Assembly: GCA_010093705.1 (NCBI GenBank)
Contig: MU006090.1
Coordinates: forward strand, 1,639,817 to 1,703,816
Direction of reading: 5' to 3'
Length of the DNA stretch: 64,000 nucleotides
Source of the DNA: Patellaria atrata CBS 101060
Lineage: Eukaryota
In this document: positions 48,241-61,250 of the stretch, in pieces
Numbering within the stretch: the first letter of the stretch is position 1
How the letters are laid out: each line of letters opens with the position of its first letter
Made by a program: the position numbers and the translations under genes
The notes under the pieces: generated by a model
Database searches by the model: none
What the model saw: the letters and a program-made list of their open reading frames with translations, nothing else
What the model was told of the DNA's origin: nothing

Positions 48241-50632
48241 ATGGACACGGAACTCATCAGAGGAGACTATAAACAGTACAAAAGCGATACAGAATTTGTT
48301 GCATGGTGGCTCGCAACTACCGCGAAGGAATATGGTTTTAAGTCTGAGAATGCAAGCCTGGATCCATGCTGGCGCTCGAACGTCAAGTTGAACTCCTACC
48401 TCATCGCGATTAGGGACTTTATTCCCTTAGCGCAATATATCAAAGGGCACTACGAAACAAACATTCCCTCAGCATTTCGCAACGCCCTCGATCGAGCTAT
48501 TAGACTACGGAAGCGCTTCCACGTATGGTTTCGTAATAGACCTCGAAAGGACAACAAATCCACCGAAGGTGCTTCGGACAAGAGTCATCGCCATTTCGTC
48601 GAGGTTCTCGAACGGGTGAGAGATATACTCTTGTACCAACCGCCCCAAGAAAGGGTGCAAGGATATTCGACGCTGTCTGAAGAGATCGTACAAAACGGCA
48701 TGGGCAATCTTCCCGCTAATATCTTCGACTTACTCACTCTCGAGGAACCAACTGAGGAATCTGCACGCACAAAAAAGGCCGCAACAATTCAATCTTCTAA
48801 GAGTACAGTATCTATTGAATATTCTTTTGAAGAAGTTCAAGACGATGAAGATGAAATGACACTGGCTCTATTCCTACTATTTTCTGAGACAGACTGTATT
48901 CGGAGTGCGATATGTGGCACCTGGTCCCGCTACCATAAGGGAGAAATTGATGTTATAGCAGCCTCGCTAGCAACCGAAACGGGTATATGGGCAGTACGAG
49001 ACATGGAACAGCAGTTCCCAGAGCTCTATCCCAGGTTCGACGATATCGAATCCTTGATCCTCGGCATATGCAACGTACAGTGCGAAAAAACAGGAGCAGC
49101 TCCCGTTGTAACAGATGTAGGAATCGAGGAAACCTCACCGGTGATATACGAAATCAAAGAAAAGTCCTTCTATTTGCCGTGGAGGGTGCTGAGTTTATCG
49201 TTTCAAAGCGCCGAATATTCTACATTACTGCAAATGGGTAGCTATTTCTTATGCGAATATGATTCATCCAAGGATCTTGAAACACTGTCGATGGTAGAAA
49301 AGCAGGAGGAGGACATACGTATCCTTGACGGGATCTTAAGAGTACTTTATACTGCTTACAGTATGTGCCTTGACGATCCCAAAAATCCTCCTCTAACCGC
49401 TGAGGATGCGCTCGTTCGATTGTTCCGGGATGCATACGGGACGGGAAAGACCACCCTGGCGGTAGTCTTCGCTATGCAAGTCTACCTTGATATACACCAT
49501 GAAATGAGAAACGATGTCTCAAAAGGATACGTCGATCTTCGCAAGACAGCAAATGCTGTGAAGACCACAATAAATCAGACCGCCAATCTTCACGCCACAC
49601 TAGGCGCTCGGGTTTGGATTACACGAGAGAATGAAATGTTCTCCTACCTTATAACGCTCATTGAAACAGTAGCTGGAGCAGAGCTCCCTTCAGAAATTCC
49701 AACAGGACTGGTGAGTTGCGGTGTATCCATTTATACATTATCTTTAGAGAGCCGGAGAGCCAGAAAGTTGGAGAAACCTAACGATTAGTTTAATAGCGCT
49801 CTACTATTATATCTAGTTACTAACCTGCTTTTAGGAGCATGAACCGCTCAGCTGGTTGCTCGAGGTACTCACAAACCACCCGTGGCAATGTGGACTGATA
49901 CGATATTGTCTCCAAATGAACGTGCAGGAAGTTGGTCTGAGGATAGCTTCTACCTGGGGTTCGATCATTTTCAGTGCCCATCTTTACAACGCAGTCCGTC
50001 AAGAACAGATTCTGGAAGAGAGATGGAAAGATATGGACACCCTCATGGTGATACACGGGCAGAACGCATTCTTTCCTGGTGGTGTCCCTAAAACTCCACC
50101 TGATTATGTCAAACGGTGCGGGTTAAAGATGGGCGTGTCTTTGGCCAACTGGGCCCCCAATCGAAGAGATAACGGACTTACTATAACACAATCGCAACTT
50201 AAGGGCCTAGAACAAGTCTCTCCGGTGAGCCGGATCTTTAAAGAACGATACTGTGAGGGGAAACACTGTCCGAATCTGTCCGAGAAAGAAATTGAGACTG
50301 TGTTATCGAAGGGTTCTACAAATGCTGTTTTGAGTTGCTGGCGTAATAAGGAGATGGTTGACGAGCATACTGTCCTAAATTCTCTCTGCGATGCTATCCA
50401 GACTGAGTTGTTTGAGATATATTTTGACTATCTGAGCATGCACCGGACTTGTATGGTCATGTTACGCCAGGTCAGAACATCTTTCTATTCTAACGGTAAT
50501 CAATCCGGTATTTCTACCGGCGCAGGCTCAAGAGTAGACGATAGAGAATTTGCCATTGTAGTTTACGAAATTTTACGAACAGGAAGCCTGCAGAACGGGG
50601 TCGGAACCTGTATACAAGAAATCAAGGCCTAG
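48241..50632 (+). CDS. DUF6604-domain protein (2 exons; intron 49711-49834); frame continues past the TAG to 50809
   Basis: N-terminal YKQYKSDT..VAWWLATTAKEYG...LDRAIRLRK...DKSHRHFVEVLERVRDIL...NIFDLLTLEEP pattern typical of fungal DUF6604 proteins; HLYNA..QE..L...WKDM motif in exon 2. Confidence 0.75.
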
Positions 50633-50978: not shown

Positions 50979-51854
50979 TCACACCAGTTCGAAACATCTC
51001 ACATCACTCTGCTGATCCTCGTCGTCTACAATCTGAATGTGAACACCACTTTCTCCCTCGTCGGAACTCACCTCGATCTCCTCATCGCTCTCCCCACTGA
51101 ATGCCCGATGGTACGCTTTTGCTCTCTTCGCTTGACCAACTTTCGCAGTCTTCTTGACGAACCTTGGGGCTGATCTATCAAAGGTGCGGTCTATTTCCAC
51201 AGGACAGTATGCCACTGCAAATATTTCTTCTTCGACAACCTGCATTGTACGCTCATGCTTTATTCCAGTGGTGATAGAAGGGTTGATGCTAGGATCCAAA
51301 AGGCCGGGTAATGGTACAGCAGACAAAACAGATAAAGGCGCCGTGACTGAGAACCCGGTCGTACGAGTTTCATCATTCCTTAGTCTCCATACTGTGCCAG
51401 TCGTTGTAAGAAATCCGATAACAAGATAAGCACGGCCATGATTTTGAAGTATCTTAGTTACGTCTTCGGCATATTGCGTATTGGTCATTAACTTTTCAAA
51501 GTACATTTCGGGATTGTTCAATGTATAACGTTTGACCTGCTGACTCTCCAATCCAGTGTGATTGTCGTGCCCTCGAGCGAAATCGAGTCCGAAGAAAGCT
51601 GTAAGTCCAAATGAGATACCCTTCTCTCTTACAAATTCTAAAATCTCTTTGCGAGTAGTTGATGACGATGGTGCGGGAAGAATATTCGGTATTATGTCGT
51701 CAGTGTGGTGGGAAACGTCCGATGGCGATAATGATTGAAAGGGGGCAAATTTATGAAGAGGAAGATATTTGTCCACTACAACACGGCACATCATATGCTT
51801 AATCTCAGTCGCTGGACATGTTTCATCGAGGAGGAAGAACCTGCGTCGACTCAT
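50979..51854 (-). CDS. Gasdermin-like pore-forming protein (fungal HET-Q1/RCD-1-type), 291 aa
   Basis: Recognised pattern: (L/M)xRVVxDxxxPxxxxxP; VKRYTLNNPEMYFEKL; AYLVIGFLT; amphipathic beta-strand region TGFSVTAP...SITTG; EEIFAVAYCPV; acidic C-terminal tail. Adjacent to a CHAT protease gene. Confidence 0.7.
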   Translation of the reverse strand: MSRRRFFLLDETCPATEIKHMMCRVVVDKYLPLHKFAPFQSLSPSDVSHHTDDIIPNILPAPSSSTTRKEILEFVREKGISFGLTAFFGLDFARGHDNHTGLESQQVKRYTLNNPEMYFEKLMTNTQYAEDVTKILQNHGRAYLVIGFLTTTGTVWRLRNDETRTTGFSVTAPLSVLSAVPLPGLLDPSINPSITTGIKHERTMQVVEEEIFAVAYCPVEIDRTFDRSAPRFVKKTAKVGQAKRAKAYHRAFSGESDEEIEVSSDEGESGVHIQIVDDEDQQSDVRCFELV

Positions 51855-52286
51855 TATGATTCGCGGTTCGAAATCCCACGTTTGACGACCGCTTTAATGT
51901 AGGTATGCTCTTTCTGTTAGATACTTGCGCTTGGAAGTACCGTAGAAATCTTTTGTACAGTACAGGAGGCAGGTGAAAGACTTTTTTTTCATATTATATA
52001 GGAATTGTCCCAGCCTTGTTGCCTAAGGGCGTCTTCATCCTCTAGACGGCTATTGCGAATGGTTTTGTGGCTGAGGGCTAGCCCATACTCCTACCTTTAG
52101 CGCGCTACGGCTGAGCGTCTGAGGGTTGATAAATGCGAAGAAGTTCCCCTAGAGGTAGCTGAGATGGAAGAAGTAATTCTCTTTGTATAACAGTCTCATT
52201 TCCAGGTCGATATGTAAAGTGAGGTACAAGTAAGGTATTGTCCATACCGAAAATCTTATCCAAATTCTCCCTAGTGCAGATCTAGA

Positions 52287-55200
52287 ATGTGCGCGGCACT
52301 CATGACGATCCCAGCGATCCAGCCCTTGCACGTCAGGCTCACTTTGCAAGCTCGGCATCAACCTTCATGGAACGACATCCCTACCAGACGGTGCTGGACG
52401 GTAGATGTTCTCGAAGGGAACGAGAAGGTAACGGAAGACTTGCAGCTTTCGGATCCTTTGAGTAAGGAGGAAGCGGCGACGTGCCGTTGGTATCTGGAAC
52501 AATATGTCCAGAGTTCCCCTTTCTCCATTTCTCAAGCTCGTGCCGCTGAAGCATTATTGAAGGGGTATCCGAAGAACATAATCAACCAACTGAATCTTAG
52601 AGAGATACTACAGTCACGAGCACCCTCTATCAATGGTCAGCCTACAGTTCTTTCACTGCTCATCAAAGAATCGATCAACAGCCCAGATGCCACTGTGCAT
52701 CAGCTTCATTGGGAAGCCCTCGAAGATCCAGAATGTTGGAATAACCCCAACCTTCGAGTCGAGGTCAAACGCGCCGCCCTCAACAAAGAGATACTCCAGA
52801 AGCCCTTAGCAAGGGTCAAAACCCGCCAGGATGAGCAAGGCGCTACCGGGACACTCAATATTCTTCTAGTTGTTGCGCGAGACACTTCTCACAATCCGGC
52901 TATTTATAGCGACGTAAATCCATTTCTTGTCTCCGATATCCTTTCACAGATACGAAAGAATCTCCGACAATCTGAACATGCCGTACGAATGAATGTAGAA
53001 ATTGTACGACCAGGGAGTTTAAAAAGTTTGGAAGAGCATCTTCAACGTGCTGAAGCTATTCACGGAACCAACTATTTCCACATCATCCATTTTGACCTCC
53101 ACGGTAAAGTAGGTCTGAGAAAGAAAGGTCCTACACGTGTCAAAAATGCTTTCCTTTATTTTTGCGATCCGCATTCTAACGCCACTAGAGCTGAAAGTGC
53201 CACCAAAGTTGGTAAGATCCTAAAAAGGCACTCCGTCCCATTGGTAGTTCTCAATGCATGCGAGTCTGCTAGGGCTAATTGTGGGGATGACGCAAACATT
53301 GCAAAGATCTTCGAACAGGAGGGTGTTCAAAAGGTTCTAGCAATGTCATTCAAGATTTCAAGTAGCGCAGCCAATTTATTTCTCTCCAAATTTTATAATG
53401 AGTTTCTCATAACCGGAACTTCATTTTCCAGAGCTGCGGCGGAGGCACGTAGCTTTCTTCGAACCTTCTCTATTAGACAAGCTCGTTTCGGGTTGGAGCT
53501 ACCCCTGAAAGATTGGTTTGTGCCGGTGATATACGGTTCTGACCACGACGTGGTGATACGCCAGGAGAAAACGCCAGGAGAAGATTCAGTGGACAGAGGG
53601 ATTGACAAACCTTTCGTTAGTACGGCTAAGCCCGATCTGTCAACGGATTCTACCCCTGTTGGACGTGAATTCGACATCTTGAGGATCGAGAAGTTGCTAT
53701 GTCAAAATCACACCCTTTATTTGCATGGGCCTCCAGGATCCGGAAAATCAGCCCTCATACGATACCTTGCCTCTGTCTGGAAGGAGACTTCCTTCGTAGA
53801 TGGATACGTCTACGTGGATTTCAAGAATATTAAGATCACTCAAGCAAATGACTTTATCGAAAATATTGCTAGCCAGCTAGTTGCTAGATTCCTGGCTTCC
53901 AACATGAATCTCTGGACGGTGAATACACTATCGGTTCAGTCTTACGACCACGAGTCCTTAAAGGACATTATCAAAAGTATCGTCAAAGAATATCGTGTTG
54001 CCATGATCTTTGATAACATTCAAGTATCCCACTCGAATATAGTCCCGATGTCTCTCGATGATGTATTGCTTACTGAAATCAATAATTTCTTGAGTCCCTT
54101 CTTAGATTCACCAGGTAGCAACCTGTCTGCCAATATAACGACTACCAAACCATTCGTCCTCTTCATAGGCCGCCGTTCGGATGTGCAGTGGATCTCGAAC
54201 ATAATTGGTTATGACTTTTTGAATCAACACTACAAAATCTCTGGACTAGAACTTCCAGATGCCATTGAATTAGCTCAATCAACTCTACGAGACGCAGGGG
54301 AGAACCTAGACGAGTGGCAACATGAAGATTTTAACACGCTTGAACTTGTTCTTGAGCTCCTTCAGAGAATACCTGACGCGATTCTCCAAGTCCTTCCCAT
54401 GGCTAGACGGTTGCGGATTCCGTGGCGTGAATTCCATCACCGCGTTCATACCCAGCTTATCTCATCAACGGAGGCCAGACGGGTGGTTGATGAGAACAAT
54501 GATTTCCACAAGGAATTCCGCAACTATGAAGAAATCTTACCCCATGTGATTTTCCCGTATTTTCTGCTTCTCGGCTTCTTTTGGCGCGAGGGTCCAATTG
54601 CAGCATCGCTAGTCGATGCTGTGATATCAATCGCAGAAAATATTGGTACTGATAGCGCAACCGAAGACCAAGTTAGAGAGGCTATTGAGACTGTCATCCG
54701 AGCCGCCATGCTATTCGCTCGTGACCGGGGGCTACTGGAGTATGACAACTCAGGAAGAATCAATTGGATACATCCATTATTTACCCTATACTCTAAAGGG
54801 CCACGGCTTGCACAATCCGACGAGGAATGTCCAGAAGACCATAAGAGGGATCAGTCTATCGCAGAGAAAGAAGTGGTCGAAGATGATTCCCCAACAAATT
54901 TTCAATCCATGAGCATAGCGTCAATTCTTCCTATTATTAAAACTATCGAAGAAAGGGCATATCTCCAATTCATGGTCAATGTCTACACTGGTAGTGACTA
55001 TAGTCAACTCCGTATTGACTATTCCGCTGCATTCCCGAACCTACTTACATGCATAAAGCATTGCATAGTTGCAGATGATATTATATCATTAAATGACTGG
55101 CCTATGACTCTTTTCACGCTTTTCGCCCCCCACATAAGGCTAGTAGGCACCACCACGGACTGCATACTTTTTGCAGACGCATATGAGCAACTACTGTCAG

Positions 55201-57383
55201 CATTTTTCCGATTAAACAAGGGCTATGCAGTGCCGGAAAAGTATCAAACCTTTGCCTTCAACGTTATCAATTACTTGACAGTTACCCATCGTGCTGAAGT
55301 CAAACTAATATCTGAGGATTCCCTCCGCTTCTCAAATATAGGAATGAGTATGATTGAGCAAACGGAGGCTAAGTACGGCCGGATAGTTGATCAATTTCAA
55401 AAGAGCCTTGTCTATCGCTACCGAACATTTATCTTCCTGGACAAAGGGATGCATTCAGAGGCTAGAGCATGCTGGCACAATATGACCACTATTGATGATG
55501 TGCTATTTGGTTCTGGTAAAGAGCGTCTCATCCCGCCAATGGAAAATCGTGAAGTCCTAAAAGAATCCATGCAAATGATTAACATACTTGCAAAAACTGA
55601 GGAAGAGAAAGCGGCGATGAAATCGCGACTTGATGCTAAACCCGGATATGCCGTTGGAGCAGCTTTCTATAAGAGTCGCAAAAAACTTGGCCACATTATT
55701 GATCTTCTGTGTGCTGGAGAGTCTCTGGAAGTGGATGGGCCCAACGGTTCAACTTATATTAAGTGGCTGAATGATCAGAGCCAAGAGCTCCAGAAAATTC
55801 ATGGTGTTACCGAAGCTGTTGGGATGAGAGGTCTCGAGATGGATGAGCGATGGTGGCCCGAAAATTTTGACATGGTCAAACAGCATACTACGCTCGAGGA
55901 TCCGTCACATCGACTCAGTGCTATAGAGGAAGCAAGAGACACAGGCAACTGGGCAGATGCCGCCGAGCAACATCAAGGTCTCTTACTCCGGGCGCTCCAG
56001 GAGGTTGACTTTGAAGAAGTCCTAGTTCACATCCGTTCTCTTATTGCAATATATCGAAGATCGCCTATCTTTGCTATGAAGATAAAAGAGATAATTGGCT
56101 TGCAGAAGTTCATAGAAGCTCTAGCACCTTTATATGAGAATTTCGTTCAACTACTCGAAAATCGAACTGAGAAAGCTGTAGAGGAGAACCTTCGTCTTAG
56201 TGACCGCCTCGTCCATGTCATTAGAGAGGTCAATCCCTCGGAAGAGAATTTACAAATAACGGACGGCTTTCAAGATTTGTGGAAAAGGTCATTGCAAGGA
56301 CCAGCCTCGATTAGGTTTACCAAAGAATGGCTGCAAGAGACGTTCCGGAAACATCTCAGAAATTTGAGGAAACCTGGGTATCAGAACCGTGTCATTGAAA
56401 TGGCTCTTCGGTTCAAAGATATTTATCGTCGTATGATTGCTGCTGAAGATGCTCACGATTATGAGACTTGCCTTGAAGTACTAGACTACATGGATGAACT
56501 TACTGATGGTGAATTAGAGAGTGACTTTTTCACCAGAGAAGAGGTTGAACGAGATCGAGAAATGTATAAATGGAAACGGGATTACTGGGCTCTATCGGAC
56601 GGACTAGGTGATGCTATTGTGGAAAACGAATTTGATATTGCTCGAGAATGTCTGCGAGGCATGAAAGATCTCCTGTGCGCAAGGGACGTCTCCTTGAGCC
56701 AAGAAAAGGGCCTATACGACCTATACGAACTCATTGAGAGAATGCACTGGAATCATGAGTGGCAGAAGGTCATTTCGGCAACGAAAGAACACAGATGGAG
56801 GGATGCTGTTAGAATCTGTAGTACGCTAGAAATGCTCTCTCAAGACGGCCTCTTCGATCACCTCAAAAACGATCCTTTCAGAACAGCCAAATCTACCCGT
56901 CTTATGGCACTATATCAACAGTCAGATGCCGGAAAAGACTGGGACTCTTGTCTTAAGTATTGCGATGATTGGGTTGAACTCAATGCAGACAAACTTAAGG
57001 ATAACCCCCGAGCCCACGACCTTGTTATCAGCATGCACGAGACCGCTGAGATGGAGAAATACAACACGGTTGCGCTAGTGCTGGATCAACAGTGCGAGTT
57101 TGAGCGTGCTCTTAAGCACTTTGAAATACTAGAGAAGATATTCCAACGCCAACAGCAGACACCAGAAGTCAAGAGGACGTCGGTGATATTGTTGCCTAAA
57201 GTCATAGCAGATATGCGAAGTCAGTTGGAATCGAAGGTCGCTATGATGCAATTGATGGGTCCAACCTTGGGAAAGCAATGGGTGTTGAGTGTAAGGGAAA
57301 AGATAGGGTATACACCTCAGTACAAACCCATGGACGAGTTGAAGAAGAATGCACATGAGAAACTGTTCGGTTCCGGCGTATGA
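52287..57383 (+). CDS. CHAT (caspase-like) protease + STAND-type P-loop NTPase + helical/TPR-like repeats; NLR-like protein, 1698 aa, no introns
   Basis: LHWEALE, NILLVVAR, IVRPG; catalytic His HFDLHG (~53085-53105) and Cys LNACES (~53250-53267); VLAMS, FY..F, DWFVPVIY. Then VGREFDIL, Walker A GPPGSGKS (~53728-53750), Walker B MIFDN, IHPLFT, and a long helical C-terminus. Confidence 0.88.
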   Translation: MCAALMTIPAIQPLHVRLTLQARHQPSWNDIPTRRCWTVDVLEGNEKVTEDLQLSDPLSKEEAATCRWYLEQYVQSSPFSISQARAAEALLKGYPKNIINQLNLREILQSRAPSINGQPTVLSLLIKESINSPDATVHQLHWEALEDPECWNNPNLRVEVKRAALNKEILQKPLARVKTRQDEQGATGTLNILLVVARDTSHNPAIYSDVNPFLVSDILSQIRKNLRQSEHAVRMNVEIVRPGSLKSLEEHLQRAEAIHGTNYFHIIHFDLHGKVGLRKKGPTRVKNAFLYFCDPHSNATRAESATKVGKILKRHSVPLVVLNACESARANCGDDANIAKIFEQEGVQKVLAMSFKISSSAANLFLSKFYNEFLITGTSFSRAAAEARSFLRTFSIRQARFGLELPLKDWFVPVIYGSDHDVVIRQEKTPGEDSVDRGIDKPFVSTAKPDLSTDSTPVGREFDILRIEKLLCQNHTLYLHGPPGSGKSALIRYLASVWKETSFVDGYVYVDFKNIKITQANDFIENIASQLVARFLASNMNLWTVNTLSVQSYDHESLKDIIKSIVKEYRVAMIFDNIQVSHSNIVPMSLDDVLLTEINNFLSPFLDSPGSNLSANITTTKPFVLFIGRRSDVQWISNIIGYDFLNQHYKISGLELPDAIELAQSTLRDAGENLDEWQHEDFNTLELVLELLQRIPDAILQVLPMARRLRIPWREFHHRVHTQLISSTEARRVVDENNDFHKEFRNYEEILPHVIFPYFLLLGFFWREGPIAASLVDAVISIAENIGTDSATEDQVREAIETVIRAAMLFARDRGLLEYDNSGRINWIHPLFTLYSKGPRLAQSDEECPEDHKRDQSIAEKEVVEDDSPTNFQSMSIASILPIIKTIEERAYLQFMVNVYTGSDYSQLRIDYSAAFPNLLTCIKHCIVADDIISLNDWPMTLFTLFAPHIRLVGTTTDCILFADAYEQLLSAFFRLNKGYAVPEKYQTFAFNVINYLTVTHRAEVKLISEDSLRFSNIGMSMIEQTEAKYGRIVDQFQKSLVYRYRTFIFLDKGMHSEARACWHNMTTIDDVLFGSGKERLIPPMENREVLKESMQMINILAKTEEEKAAMKSRLDAKPGYAVGAAFYKSRKKLGHIIDLLCAGESLEVDGPNGSTYIKWLNDQSQELQKIHGVTEAVGMRGLEMDERWWPENFDMVKQHTTLEDPSHRLSAIEEARDTGNWADAAEQHQGLLLRALQEVDFEEVLVHIRSLIAIYRRSPIFAMKIKEIIGLQKFIEALAPLYENFVQLLENRTEKAVEENLRLSDRLVHVIREVNPSEENLQITDGFQDLWKRSLQGPASIRFTKEWLQETFRKHLRNLRKPGYQNRVIEMALRFKDIYRRMIAAEDAHDYETCLEVLDYMDELTDGELESDFFTREEVERDREMYKWKRDYWALSDGLGDAIVENEFDIARECLRGMKDLLCARDVSLSQEKGLYDLYELIERMHWNHEWQKVISATKEHRWRDAVRICSTLEMLSQDGLFDHLKNDPFRTAKSTRLMALYQQSDAGKDWDSCLKYCDDWVELNADKLKDNPRAHDLVISMHETAEMEKYNTVALVLDQQCEFERALKHFEILEKIFQRQQQTPEVKRTSVILLPKVIADMRSQLESKVAMMQLMGPTLGKQWVLSVREKIGYTPQYKPMDELKKNAHEKLFGSGV

Positions 57384-58261: not shown

Positions 58262-60069
58262 CGTGACCGTACGGATGCTTGACTTGGTTTTGAGAAACCC
58301 CGCGGTAAAGGAGGACGTGAGAAATGGAGAGGAGAAGAGCACAGCTAGAGACGGAAAGGGGAGTATCTCTGTGTTCCAGGAATGCCTGTGGCGTATGACA
58401 GTATTGTTACTCGATAGTGATAACTGTTTAACTGTACTGCCAGACACTGACTCGATGTCTCTGAGTGAGGACGAAGGATCTGAAGAAGAAATGGAAAGAC
58501 TGAGAGCAAAGAAGCTTTTTTTTTAAGAGCCGACATCTTGGTCAATATTGCAACTCCGGCTTTGACGGTTGAGAGAAGAGGTGAGTGGGGATTTGGTGCT
58601 GGTCAAAGACTCAATTGCAGCAGTGGAATGGTTATACAATTGGATTTCCACGGGATTGTGTATGAGAAGAGAAAAAGAACTTATGTTCAATCAATAATCA
58701 TTTTAAGGGAAAGGGTCCTCGCTATTTCCACATTTCGTTTGGTACGTTTGAAACGCTACCCTGGTACTGAAGAGGGTAGTTAGTGAAATACGAAAGAGCG
58801 TCACGACAAATACAGCTCGTCCAAAGCAAGTGCAAATAAAGTAAAGCAATATCATTCTATAGAAAATGTCAAAAGATTCCCACTGTTACCTATGTATTCT
58901 GCTATCATTTTTCGATCTCAGCTTCTGTTTCTCAATTTCAGAAAGAAAGTGCTCTTTGCTTACCATGAGACCGTATCCCGCCTAATATTCCTACTTTCTT
59001 ATTTATACTCTATCTCATAGGTACTTTCACCAGCCGCTCTTGATCATATCCAGGGCTCACGTCCCCGTCCGTAGCAGAGAAAACCAGATTGTTTGAACGG
59101 AACCTGGGGGTACTCGCGGTCAGACGTTACTACCTGGCTCACATTTTGACCACTTGCATGTTCATTCACAATAAGGTAGTCATCTCATGTTCTAGCAATT
59201 GTAGCCGCAAGAGCAATCGTCATCTCCCAAAGGTGCGTCATACTTCCCTCCTGACGTTAACTTTGAGGTATGTTATCACGTAGACAACCGCAGTACATGA
59301 CTCTCAAGCTACGCTGGACCTTGTAAGGACCCTCACTTTCCTCCTTGTATTTTCAACCTAGTATGGGCTTACTCAAAGGAGACCCCTATCTAGCCTCACA
59401 ACACAAGTGGAATAGTATGTTTACCTAAGAGAAGAAATGACGTTGGTTCTATGTCCGGTAGCGGGTTCGATGAACTTTATCGCAGCAAAATTTTCCTATT
59501 TGTTTACCTCGGGCCACCGCCTTCGGCCCCGTTGTCACAGCAACGCGTCTCCCACCACCACCACCCACAACCTTCCCGCCCTCGCACTTTCACCAGCCAC
59601 TTGGTACCGCCCGGCAACTGCTCAAGCTCGGGCCAAATGCCGTCAAAGCATCACGTCGTTAACCCACAAAATGATGAGTTCCTCATTCGGCTAGTCGGTT
59701 TACTTGCGCAATCTCTGAATATATCTTTCCAACTTCTCACCCAAACCTCCATTCTTCTTTCCTTCCATTCTAACCATCACAGATCTCAAAGTCTCCTGAC
59801 AGCTTCTGATTTTCCTTGGACATGCTGACAGTTGTTCTTCTAGACTCAACTTTTTTAAGTCACTAGGTGCCCTGGGTCGTGGTGGCTCGTGTCATGGTCT
59901 GTCTTCGTAAGTTCTATCCCCACTGCCCATTTCTTCACATGCATGTGCTTATCTGATCATACCTAGCTTCCATAGTAACTAGATTCTCCTTTCTCTCACA
60001 ACCATCTCGCATCATCTCACCTCATCTCACTTCCCACTCCCCCAACCCCAATCCTCACGTCTAGTTTGT

Positions 60070-60262
60070 CTGCCAGTTCGTTTACCAGTTCGCCTTCCAG
60101 TTTGCCTTCCCCCTCCCCAGTCTCCCACCTCTCCAGTCTTCCCCTTTCCCAGTCTTCCCCTTCCCCAGTCTTCCCTCCAGTCTTCGCTCCAGCCTTCTCC
60201 CCAGCCTTCCCCCAGTCTTTCCCCAGTCTTTCCCCCCTAGTCTCCCCTCTCTACAGTCATCT
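60070..60262. repeat. Degenerate pyrimidine-rich tandem repeat (CCCAGTCTTC-like units)
   Basis: Repeated CCAGTCT/CCAGCCTT motifs at 11-16 bp spacing. Confidence 0.7.
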
Positions 60263-61042
60263 CTAGATTTTCGTTTCCTTCCTTCGTCAGTCCCAGTCAC
60301 TGTGTGTGCTAACCCTTGATTTCCGCTGGACTGAAGATTGACAGATGAAGCGACACAGTTGGTCATTGGTAAGTCCAACCTCTTTTCTCGATAGTGGCTT
60401 GCCTGCTTAGCTTGAGACTCTGGTGGGTCTTAGATAGCAATTAATAGATCTTGTTCTGCTCAAATACTTCCCCAAGTGACTTTCCTTACGATGACCTTCG
60501 TGCTTACCCCCACCTCATAACCATCTACGATTGTCGCCTTGGTGCTCTACTCGAGGTGTCTTGCGTCTGATGGTCTTTTCGCGGGTTGAGCCCCCGTAAG
60601 GGATTGCTTCTACCCCGACGTGCCACGTACCTGACGCGTCCGTCGCCCATGTTCCATGAAGATTTTTGGTGTTTTGGTGCGCCGCAACGATTAATTCATC
60701 TATCGTGATATATCTTCCCACCAATTATCTTCTTCGTATCTTCCTACGAGTAACAAAGATCTTCAACCCGCTAGCTCACGCAGACATATTTGAACCCCCA
60801 TCGCGCATTGACCTCACACCACCAATGCGTAAACAAGGATGAGCGGCCATAGACGTCAACGTTCATTTTCATTCTAATTCATGAGAGGTAGCTAACGGTC
60901 TATTGTTTGAAGTCTTCTCGATTTCGCTAATAGAGGTAATGACATAAACGCATCCCATCCGACAGACCTGTTCCGACGCCTGATCTAGTATCCAACTGGA
61001 AAACGTTCAGATGCCAAGGTCAGAGCGCAAGGCTTATAGTTC

Positions 61043-61230
61043 GAAGCTCAAAGCTCACAGATCGCAACTCAAAGCCCGAAGCCCACAGCTCCCTTCAGAG
61101 CCCACAGCTCAAAGCTCAAAGGCCACAGTTTATAATTCAAGCTCAACTCCTAAAGTTCTAAAGTCCAAAGCTCACAGCTGAAGCTCAAACCTCACACCTC
61201 CCGCCCACACCTCACAGCCCAACCTCAAAC
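61043..61230. repeat. Degenerate short-unit repeat (AAGCTCA / GCCCACAG) downstream of the SCY1-like gene stop
   Basis: Repeated 7-mer variants are visible. Confidence 0.6.
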
Positions 61231-61250
61231 CCTAACCCGATGCCTTCCAC

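Follow-up and report, generated by a model that had tools for sequence, protein, structure and literature searches.

In the fungal HET-Q1/HET-Q2 system, as the text of Clave et al. 2022 describes it, the gasdermin HET-Q1 is cut after F238, both L237 and F238 being required, and a fragment of about 5 kDa is freed (PMC8851545). The same text reports that a CHAT-protease gene is present within 10 kb for 353 of 1,884 fungal het-Q1 homologs, and that some of the partners of het-Q1 homologs resemble NOD-like receptors (NLRs) (PMC8851545). In Podospora, the CHAT domain of Q2L-6, a tetratricopeptide repeat (TPR)-CHAT protein, processes the neighbouring gasdermin Q1-6 and causes a barrage, and the legend to Fig. 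6 of that paper sets a CHAT-containing NLR-like protein, which activates a HET-Q1 protein, beside NLRC4/caspase-1/GSDMD (PMC8851545). We have analysed a gene pair of this kind in Patellaria atrata CBS 101060. It lies within a stretch of 64,000 nucleotides of contig MU006090.1, here called the window, whose coordinates are used for all positions, and it consists of a gene for a gasdermin-like protein placed head to head with a gene for a CHAT-containing NLR (CHAT-NLR). The two genes probably form a module for regulated cell death that resembles het-Q1/het-Q2 and represents a subtype in which the partner protein carries a CHAT domain and a P-loop.

The gene pair and its published relatives

The two genes and the region between them are laid out as follows.

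50979..51854, minus strand: gasdermin-like gene, 291 amino acids plus stop (open reading frame (ORF) list; 41 homologs in Ascomycota; gasdermin fold)
51855..52286, no strand: divergent intergenic region common to both genes, 432 bp between the start codons (ORF list)
52287..57383, plus strand: CHAT-NLR gene, 1698 amino acids plus stop, no intron needed (ORF list; colinear orthologs)

The two ATG codons point in opposite directions, with 432 bp (51855-52286) between them, and the ORF coordinates agree with an earlier reading of this DNA, hereafter the original prediction, which had proposed head-to-head genes for proteins of 291 and 1698 residues on either side of a 432-bp divergent region. Because the large ORF is colinear from its first residue with 21 fungal orthologs of 1387-1776 amino acids, the intronless structure that had been proposed for it is credible. 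Each gene of the pair is single-copy within the window. Both ORFs are complete, and every invariant catalytic and P-loop residue has been retained.

The published definition of such a pair, as worded in Clave et al. 2022, is a gasdermin gene no more than 10 kb from one that encodes a protease domain of the S8 or CHAT type (PMC8851545). The window pair fits this definition: the genes are adjacent, their starts are 432 bp apart, and one of them encodes a Pfam CHAT domain. A direct relative is to be found in the supplementary tables of that paper, where row 549 of Dataset S1 lists KAF1810200.1 (a het-Q1 homolog) together with KAF1810199.1 (CHAT) in Eremomyces bilateralis, and row 443 of Dataset S2 divides KAF1810199.1 into an N-terminus of 118 residues, a CHAT domain and a C-terminus of 1,128 residues with P-loop_NTPase (PMC8851545). 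One of our homologs, P0049, is identical in its first 118 residues to the printed N-terminus of KAF1810199.1 and is 40% identical to the large window protein over the first 700 residues (E 1.5e-144); for these reasons we equate P0049 with KAF1810199.1 and consider it an ortholog of the window protein. KAF1810200.1 is presumably orthologous to the window gasdermin. The table rows also hold a similar CHAT + P-loop_NTPase protein from Fusarium proliferatum, CVL11809.1, and P-loop_NTPase occurs 83 times in Dataset S2, with both S8 and CHAT types among the rows listed (PMC8851545). The window pair belongs to a class already published in 2022 and offers no new principle. In this respect the original prediction overstated its novelty, since gasdermin genes beside genes for CHAT proteases and CHAT-NLRs are reported by Clave et al. 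2022, whose tables include an ortholog (PMC8851545).

The likeness to the individual precedents varies. The Eremomyces and Fusarium pairs have in common with the window an orthologous CHAT + P-loop family; they come from other species, differ in sequence and appear in the tables as catalogue rows, which carry no structure, cut site or experiment. The Podospora pair Q1-6/Q2L-6 is also a gasdermin gene that adjoins a CHAT-protease gene. However, Q2L-6 as described has N-terminal TPRs, a C-terminal CHAT domain and no nucleoside triphosphatase (NTPase), whereas the window protein has an N-terminal CHAT domain, an NB-ARC-like NTPase and a solenoid that is not made of TPRs. With HET-Q1/HET-Q2, as published, the window pair would share a short inhibitory C-terminal fragment (about 5 kDa in HET-Q1) that the protein encoded by the adjacent gene removes; HET-Q1 is cut after a Leu-Phe pair (F238), and in the window protein an Ala-Phe pair (251-252) stands before a tail of 4.3 kDa. 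HET-Q2, unlike the large window protein, lacks sensor domains; it is a serine protease of the subtilisin type and belongs to an allelic system, and the profile link to HET-Q1 has an E value of just 0.11. The closest solved structures are those of RCD-1 from Neurospora crassa, although its identity with the window protein is 11-14% and it has no partner protease.

The animal systems offer a more general parallel. In NLR/caspase-1/gasdermin D, and in Apaf-1/CED-4 with caspase-9/CED-3, a platform of the STAND type (signal-transduction ATPase with numerous domains) acts on a clan CD protease and, in the former, from there on a gasdermin, which is the logic proposed for the window pair. The window pair differs from the inflammasome in that its protease and NLR form one polypeptide with no CARD/PYD adaptor, CHAT is not a caspase, the gasdermin tail has 39 residues rather than being a folded C-terminal domain, and the motif before the tail suggests a cut site other than Asp. 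The association between gasdermins and CHAT-NLRs is repeated in a 2022 survey of fungal NLRs (PMC9815663) and in a 2025 review (PMC12881547), in the passages of each that deal with it. In those of the review, the TPR-CHAT pair is the sole one named as tested, and the regulation of the receptors is described as still open (PMC12881547). Among the literature matches listed there was none in which a full-length fungal CHAT-NLR had been studied for its function or activation.

Domain structure of the two proteins

The small protein can be divided into three parts.

51099..51854, minus strand: predicted pore-forming domain, residues 1-252, isoelectric point (pI) 9.1 (AlphaFold2 (AF2) model against the RCD-1 pore)
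51096..51155, minus strand: conserved basic motif, residues 234-253, with a candidate cleavage site after F252 (column counts in 39 sequences)
50982..51098, minus strand: acidic tail, residues 253-291, 39 amino acids, 4.3 kDa, pI 4.05, presumed to be an inhibitory peptide

The predicted fold, and thus chiefly a model whose confidence is moderate, places the small protein among the gasdermins of the HET-Q1/RCD-1 type. The AF2 model was built on the alignment of 39 sequences and has a mean predicted local distance difference test (pLDDT) score of 70; its core is confident, and its low-confidence parts are three loops (67-96, 164-173 and 188-196) and the tail (253-291). Foldseek puts the Neurospora RCD-1 pore at the head of the PDB matches (E 1.6e-5), with gasdermins throughout ranks 1-11. 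When the model is superimposed with VIA-align on a protomer of that pore (8jyz_A), 190 residues are aligned with a root-mean-square deviation of 3.8 A and a Z score of 10.2, the aligned span being model residues 3-253. A scan of 48,161 representative PDB chains that was independent of Foldseek gave the same top match, and its best 12 rows are gasdermins: three RCD-1 entries (8jyz, 8jyx and 8jyy, with Z scores of 10.2, 9.1 and 8.6), then bacterial gasdermins (8.2 and 8.0) and animal ones (6.1 to 5.2). Cholesterol-dependent cytolysin/MACPF proteins come next, at a Z of 5 or less, and rank 50 has fallen to 2.9. The structural comparison with gasdermins that the original prediction had called for has therefore found fungal RCD-1 as the closest relative (Z 10.2); of its "gasdermin-like motif pattern", it is the fold that has been confirmed.

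At the sequence level the link to known gasdermins appears weak but specific. A broad profile made from the window protein and 55 others (56 sequences) picked out of the PDB sequences RCD-1-1 (E 0.0012), RCD-1-2 (E 0.0013) and the HET-Q1 pore 9uv9 (E 0.11). Five of its six matches are fungal gasdermins, including two more RCD-1 constructs, and the remaining one, EMC5 (E 0.025), is unrelated. The window protein itself matched no model of Pfam, PADLOC or NCBIfam and no PDB sequence. Its 41 homologs are similar in length and all annotated as hypothetical, and those with a named source belong to the Lecanoromycetes, Dothideomycetes, Sordariomycetes and Pezizomycetes. Three of the 41, all short (P0033, P0039 and P0042), were left out of the gasdermin alignment; a profile of the 39 family sequences reached 1,110 cluster representatives at E <= 0.001.

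The end of the protein has a conserved layout in these 39 sequences. After the last strand comes the basic motif, with the family consensus KKxPV[ILV]G[RP]PKRAxA[RK]HLAFG, and this is followed by a run of Asp, Glu and Ser, a hydrophobic stretch of a few residues (I273-V276) and, close to the end, a Phe (F288), which is retained in 34 of the 39. The acidic C-terminal tail had been put at about 40 residues in the original prediction and in fact has 39, among which are 14 D/E and 1 K/R.

Two further features of this protein deserve mention. About half of the homologs have been annotated from an internal start at MMCRVV; the 20 residues that precede this point are conserved and form a strand in the model, which favours the longer start. 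In the AlphaFold model the two hairpins (at about 141-167 and 193-225) are fully extended and the model is nearer to the pore state of RCD-1 than to its crystal form, but this is a property of the prediction and says nothing on the resting state.

The large protein has the following parts, all on the plus strand.

52287..52679, plus strand: conserved pre-CHAT N-terminal region, residues 1-131 (invariant residues; bacterial alignment)
52680..53459, plus strand: CHAT domain (clan CD, caspase-like), residues 132-391 (Pfam PF12770)
53088..53105, plus strand: His motif HFDLHG, residues 268-273, the catalytic His being taken as H272 (conservation)
53250..53267, plus strand: Cys motif LNACES, residues 322-327, with C325 taken as the catalytic Cys (conservation)
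53667..54794, plus strand: NB-ARC-like STAND NTPase module (nucleotide-binding, helical and winged-helix-like domains), residues 461-836 (Pfam, AF2, Foldseek)
53727-53750, plus strand: Walker A, GPPGSGKS, residues 481-488 (G481, G484, G486 and K487 invariant in 22 fungal sequences)
54003-54017, plus strand: Walker B, MIFDN, residues 573-577 (family consensus at this site ILDGL)
54915..57380, plus strand: all-helical C-terminal solenoid, residues 877-1698, presumed to be a sensor and autoinhibitory domain (AF2; identity gradient)

The Pfam model for CHAT (PF12770) recognises its domain at E 7.6e-15, with 55.5 bits against a cut-off of 24, and the His/Cys dyad, which the original prediction had called intact, is invariant; the four motifs that it had named, HFDLHG, LNACES, GPPGSGKS and MIFDN, are indeed located at residues 268-273, 322-327, 481-488 and 573-577. 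Among the 22 fungal sequences, H268, D270, H272 and G273 around the His and L322, N323, C325 and S327 around the Cys do not vary, nor do P57, W68, Y69, P78 and Y94 of the pre-CHAT region. The equivalents of the dyad in 17 bacterial sequences (H225-G226 and C302) are invariant as well, and so is LNAC. We take H272 and C325 to be the catalytic pair, on the pattern of a His-Gly in clan CD. The alignment of the large protein (A2) leaves out three of the 24 fungal orthologs (P0050, P0058 and P0067), and a further one (A4) also omits P0046 and P0061. Against PDB sequences the A2 profile gave weak matches to the P-loops of NLRP5 and NLRP14 (E 0.005) and to designed helical proteins, and no CHAT structure; on the proteins of the pair, the PADLOC and NCBIfam models gave nothing beyond weak P-loop matches.

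For the NTPase, the P-loop domain NPHP3_N of Pfam is above its cut-off, with 32.2 bits where 24.8 are required. NACHT, at 17.4 bits against 26.7, stays below its cut-off, as do ATPase_2 and AAA_16, and NB-ARC is not listed; some of the orthologs have a precomputed Pfam assignment to NACHT, and one has an assignment to NB-ARC. The module presumably belongs on the NB-ARC side, to judge from a GxP-like motif, RIPDAI, for which the family consensus is GIPAAL. In the AF2 model of residues 440-1639 (pLDDT 79.7), an alpha/beta NTPase is succeeded by a helical domain, winged-helix-like strands and a disordered linker, and then by helices only, from residue 877 to 1624. The top Foldseek match of the NTPase part is 6mfv, a STAND protein with TPRs (E 8.9e-7), and further matches are the coiled-coil NLR (CNL) resistosomes of wheat, tomato and Arabidopsis, CED-4, Apaf-1, Avs3/Avs4 and SAMD9. 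The STAND matches range from E 9e-7 to 1e-4, with 6mfv, the CNLs, CED-4, Apaf-1 and Avs3/4 at a Foldseek probability of 1.00. The STAND NTPase of the original prediction has thus been upheld, both by a Pfam score above cut-off (NPHP3_N) and by an NB-ARC-like fold in AF2 and Foldseek. Its TPR-like, helical-repeat C-terminus has fared less evenly: AF2 makes the region all-helical, but TPRs or other repeats were found neither by Pfam nor by the tandem-repeat program TRF or self-BLAST. Mean identity to the orthologs declines from 45.6% in the CHAT domain to 29.8% in the NTPase module and 19.2% in the solenoid. Since a CHAT domain, an NB-ARC-like NTPase and a helical C-terminus that is the least conserved part succeed one another, the architecture of the large protein is that of effector, switch and sensor, as in NLRs, the role of sensor being presumed.

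Conservation of the pairing and bacterial relatives

When metagenome contigs were scanned with the gasdermin alignment, 28 loci were confirmed, and a tblastn search with the large protein found a match in 18 of them. At 17 loci the CHAT match is upstream of the gasdermin on the other strand, its N-terminal end being the closest to the gasdermin, at an extrapolated start-to-start distance of 313-620 bp. Most of the loci with no match (eight out of ten) have at most 369 bp, or none at all, upstream of the gasdermin start, and where at least 870 bp are available the head-to-head pair is kept in 17 of 19 loci. Gasdermin identity over these loci is 28-56%. The synteny across fungi that the original prediction proposed to examine is thus found in 17 of the 19 informative loci, and the pair is also in the dataset of Clave et al. 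Finally, five pairs of gasdermin and CHAT matches have longest contigs of equal size (for example, 152,267 bp in Lojkania enalia), which suggests that the two members of each are on the same contig.

Two of the metagenome loci are irregular. On the 1,144-bp contig of L022, the gasdermin (121-280) and CHAT (222-274) matches abut or overlap oddly; this contig, which may be rearranged or chimeric, was left out of the 17. Locus L028 (1344-1955) has a gasdermin remnant, namely the C-terminal half from about residue 116 in an open frame, and no CHAT gene was detected in the 1,109 bp upstream of it. L028 would seem to be a copy of the gasdermin/CHAT-NLR module that has decayed.

The first 700 residues of the large protein also match proteins from prokaryotic sources that combine CHAT, NACHT or NB-ARC and many TPRs. 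One of these, from a plasmid of Muricoccus radiodurans (P0071), is colinear with window residues 54-704 at 28% identity (E 3e-54), the alignment taking in the pre-CHAT region, the dyad, Walker A and B and the GxP-like motif; 17 of the 21 bacterial-type matches made up the bacterial alignment. Prokaryote genomes taken one per species contain at least 572 loci, bacterial and some archaeal, for proteins of this CHAT-NOD-TPR type (NOD, nucleotide-binding oligomerisation domain), many of them in Chloroflexota and cyanobacteria and as stand-alone genes. Their TPRs are true ones by Pfam, unlike the C-terminus of the window protein. The largest family of neighbours occurs at 19 of 76 bacterial loci, with a median length of 145 amino acids and on mixed strands. 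Among 114 flanking ORFs of 170-420 amino acids, within 1.3 kb at 58 loci, PADLOC reported no model named gasdermin, a weak result that had no positive control and for which the presence of such a model in the library was unchecked. Bacterial gasdermin operons use adjacent proteases in the account of Johnson et al.

Some neighbours of the bacterial loci (L029-L108) match mad, PDC-S, CARF, pAgo-like, SoFic and MzaA, which hints that bacterial CHAT-NOD-TPR genes are situated in defence islands. There is also a family of ORFs of about 134 amino acids that are co-oriented with the CHAT-NOD-TPR gene and near it at 10 of the 76 loci, upstream in nine of these ten (examples are 310-750 in L087 and 5491-5889 in L083, both on the plus strand). 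The two that were tested have no Pfam match; the family may represent a small partner protein.

The surroundings of the window pair are those of an ordinary filamentous-fungus chromosome, with genes for a DEAH helicase, PRMT5, a DUF6604 protein, an AA9 enzyme with CBM1 and an actin-like protein. The gene for the DUF6604 protein (Pfam E 1.6e-55) is just past the 3' end of the gasdermin gene at 48241-50632 on the plus strand, and an ORF on the same strand at 49916-50632 is maybe another exon. Further along, the region 59000-61250 is without long ORFs and has strongly negative GC and AT skews (GC skew to -0.40); it also contains short tandem repeats rich in C and T (60106-60249 and 61045-61231).

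Proposed mechanism and competing explanations

The analysis above shows folds and domains, catalytic and nucleotide-binding residues that are conserved, a conserved pairing and orthology with a published pair; to these we add an order of events and a cut site that we infer. At rest, the basic pore-forming domain (1-252) would be kept inactive by the acidic C-terminal peptide of 39 residues. The first step would be a cue that is bound or released at the solenoid; in the second, the NB-ARC-like NTPase would exchange its nucleotide and oligomerise; and in the third, the CHAT domains would be brought together and activated by proximity. CHAT would then (fourth step) cut the gasdermin at the conserved motif (K/R)HLAF-G or beside it, F252 being the probable residue before the cut. 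By analogy with HET-Q1, our guess is that a cut there would free 39 residues, or 4.3 kDa. The acidic tail would leave (fifth step) and the freed N-terminal domain would oligomerise (sixth step) to produce a membrane pore and the death of the cell. We think it likely that the two genes constitute a cell-death module that works in these six steps. The original prediction, in which the large protein would cleave the neighbouring gasdermin, has support as far as computation goes.

Several observations weigh against this reading. The membership of the small protein among the gasdermins is mainly model-based (pLDDT 70), because the narrow profile of its family found no gasdermin among PDB sequences, and Pfam gave only scattered single-member matches, at E >= 0.0009, on the 56 family members. 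The pLDDT of the tail is below 50, so its packing and its inhibitory action are presumptions, and the choice of F252 as P1 residue is a guess that leans on F238 of HET-Q1. RCD-1, the nearest solved relative, is activated by the pairing of two allelic forms and is not known to need cleavage. The supposed sensor has no recognisable ligand-binding repeats: no TPR or other repeat family of Pfam at E <= 1, no tandem DNA repeats by TRF and no BLASTP self-similarity were found in the C-terminus. As for the pairing, L005 has 893 bp upstream of its gasdermin and no CHAT partner was found there; moreover, there are several near-copies among the 17 syntenic loci (L009/L010/L012 and L019/L020/L021), which by an informal count leaves about ten independent lineages. 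Lastly, the fungal gasdermin hidden Markov models matched none of the 610 ORFs that flank 80 bacterial CHAT-NOD-TPR loci, and no gasdermin-sized neighbour recurs in the 76 loci that have flanking ORFs; the CHAT-NOD module therefore does not need a gasdermin everywhere.

Among the competing explanations, an allorecognition (heterokaryon incompatibility) locus, in which alleles or idiomorphs that differ between strains trigger death upon hyphal fusion, would differ from the six-step module in biological role and not in biochemistry, and the two can coexist. Both HET-Q1/HET-Q2 and RCD-1 are called allorecognition systems in the text of PMC8851545, and a hetB idiomorph of A. fumigatus, an incompatibility gene, is reported to encode a CHAT protein of 1,327 residues (PMC11138114). 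However, the window protein is of full length and has switch and sensor domains, whereas HET-Q2 is described as a protease-only derivative (PMC8851545). Nor was there any variant over the locus in two public DNA runs; these span it with 0 differences, but both are from one sample and are possibly the window's own source, hence not independent support. On balance, an allorecognition role seems rather unlikely for this pair.

It is very improbable that the gasdermin becomes active with no proteolysis, whether in the style of RCD-1 or by some other trigger, while the CHAT-NLR acts on other substrates or only on itself and the two genes are merely co-regulated from the promoter region that they share. 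RCD-1 is, to be sure, the best structural match, and the bacterial relatives of the CHAT-NOD part do without a recurrent gasdermin-sized neighbour. Yet a conserved basic motif and an acidic tail come after the pore-forming domain, an arrangement that RCD-1 is not known to have, and the head-to-head pair has been kept in 17 of the 19 informative loci while gasdermin identity ranged over 28-56%. In Podospora, moreover, a gasdermin is indeed processed by the CHAT domain encoded next to it, according to the text of PMC8851545. That the window module is an inert copy, decaying or silenced, whose ORFs reflect recent function is hardly credible: L028, with half a gasdermin and no partner, seems to be a decayed copy elsewhere, and the Walker B of the window (MIFDN) departs from the family consensus (ILDGL), but here neither ORF is truncated, each is colinear with its orthologs and all of the invariant catalytic and P-loop residues are kept.

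Returning to the six-step module, its history may tentatively be sketched, although we are doubtful that the sketch holds in all its parts. The fungal CHAT-NB-ARC-like unit would derive from the bacterial CHAT-NOD-TPR proteins, or have a recent common origin with them; fungi would have added the gasdermin independently and exchanged the TPR sensor for a fast-evolving, non-repetitive solenoid, and (K/R)HLAF-G would be a cleavage code not based on Asp. As no gasdermin was found beside the bacterial genes at the loci analysed, protease-NLR and gasdermin may have been joined independently in the fungi.

The value of the Patellaria pair is a practical one. It is compact, intronless and complete, its critical residues are intact, and it comes with a candidate cut site (F252) and a clear domain map; such a pair could serve to reconstitute the activation of a fungal CHAT-NLR.

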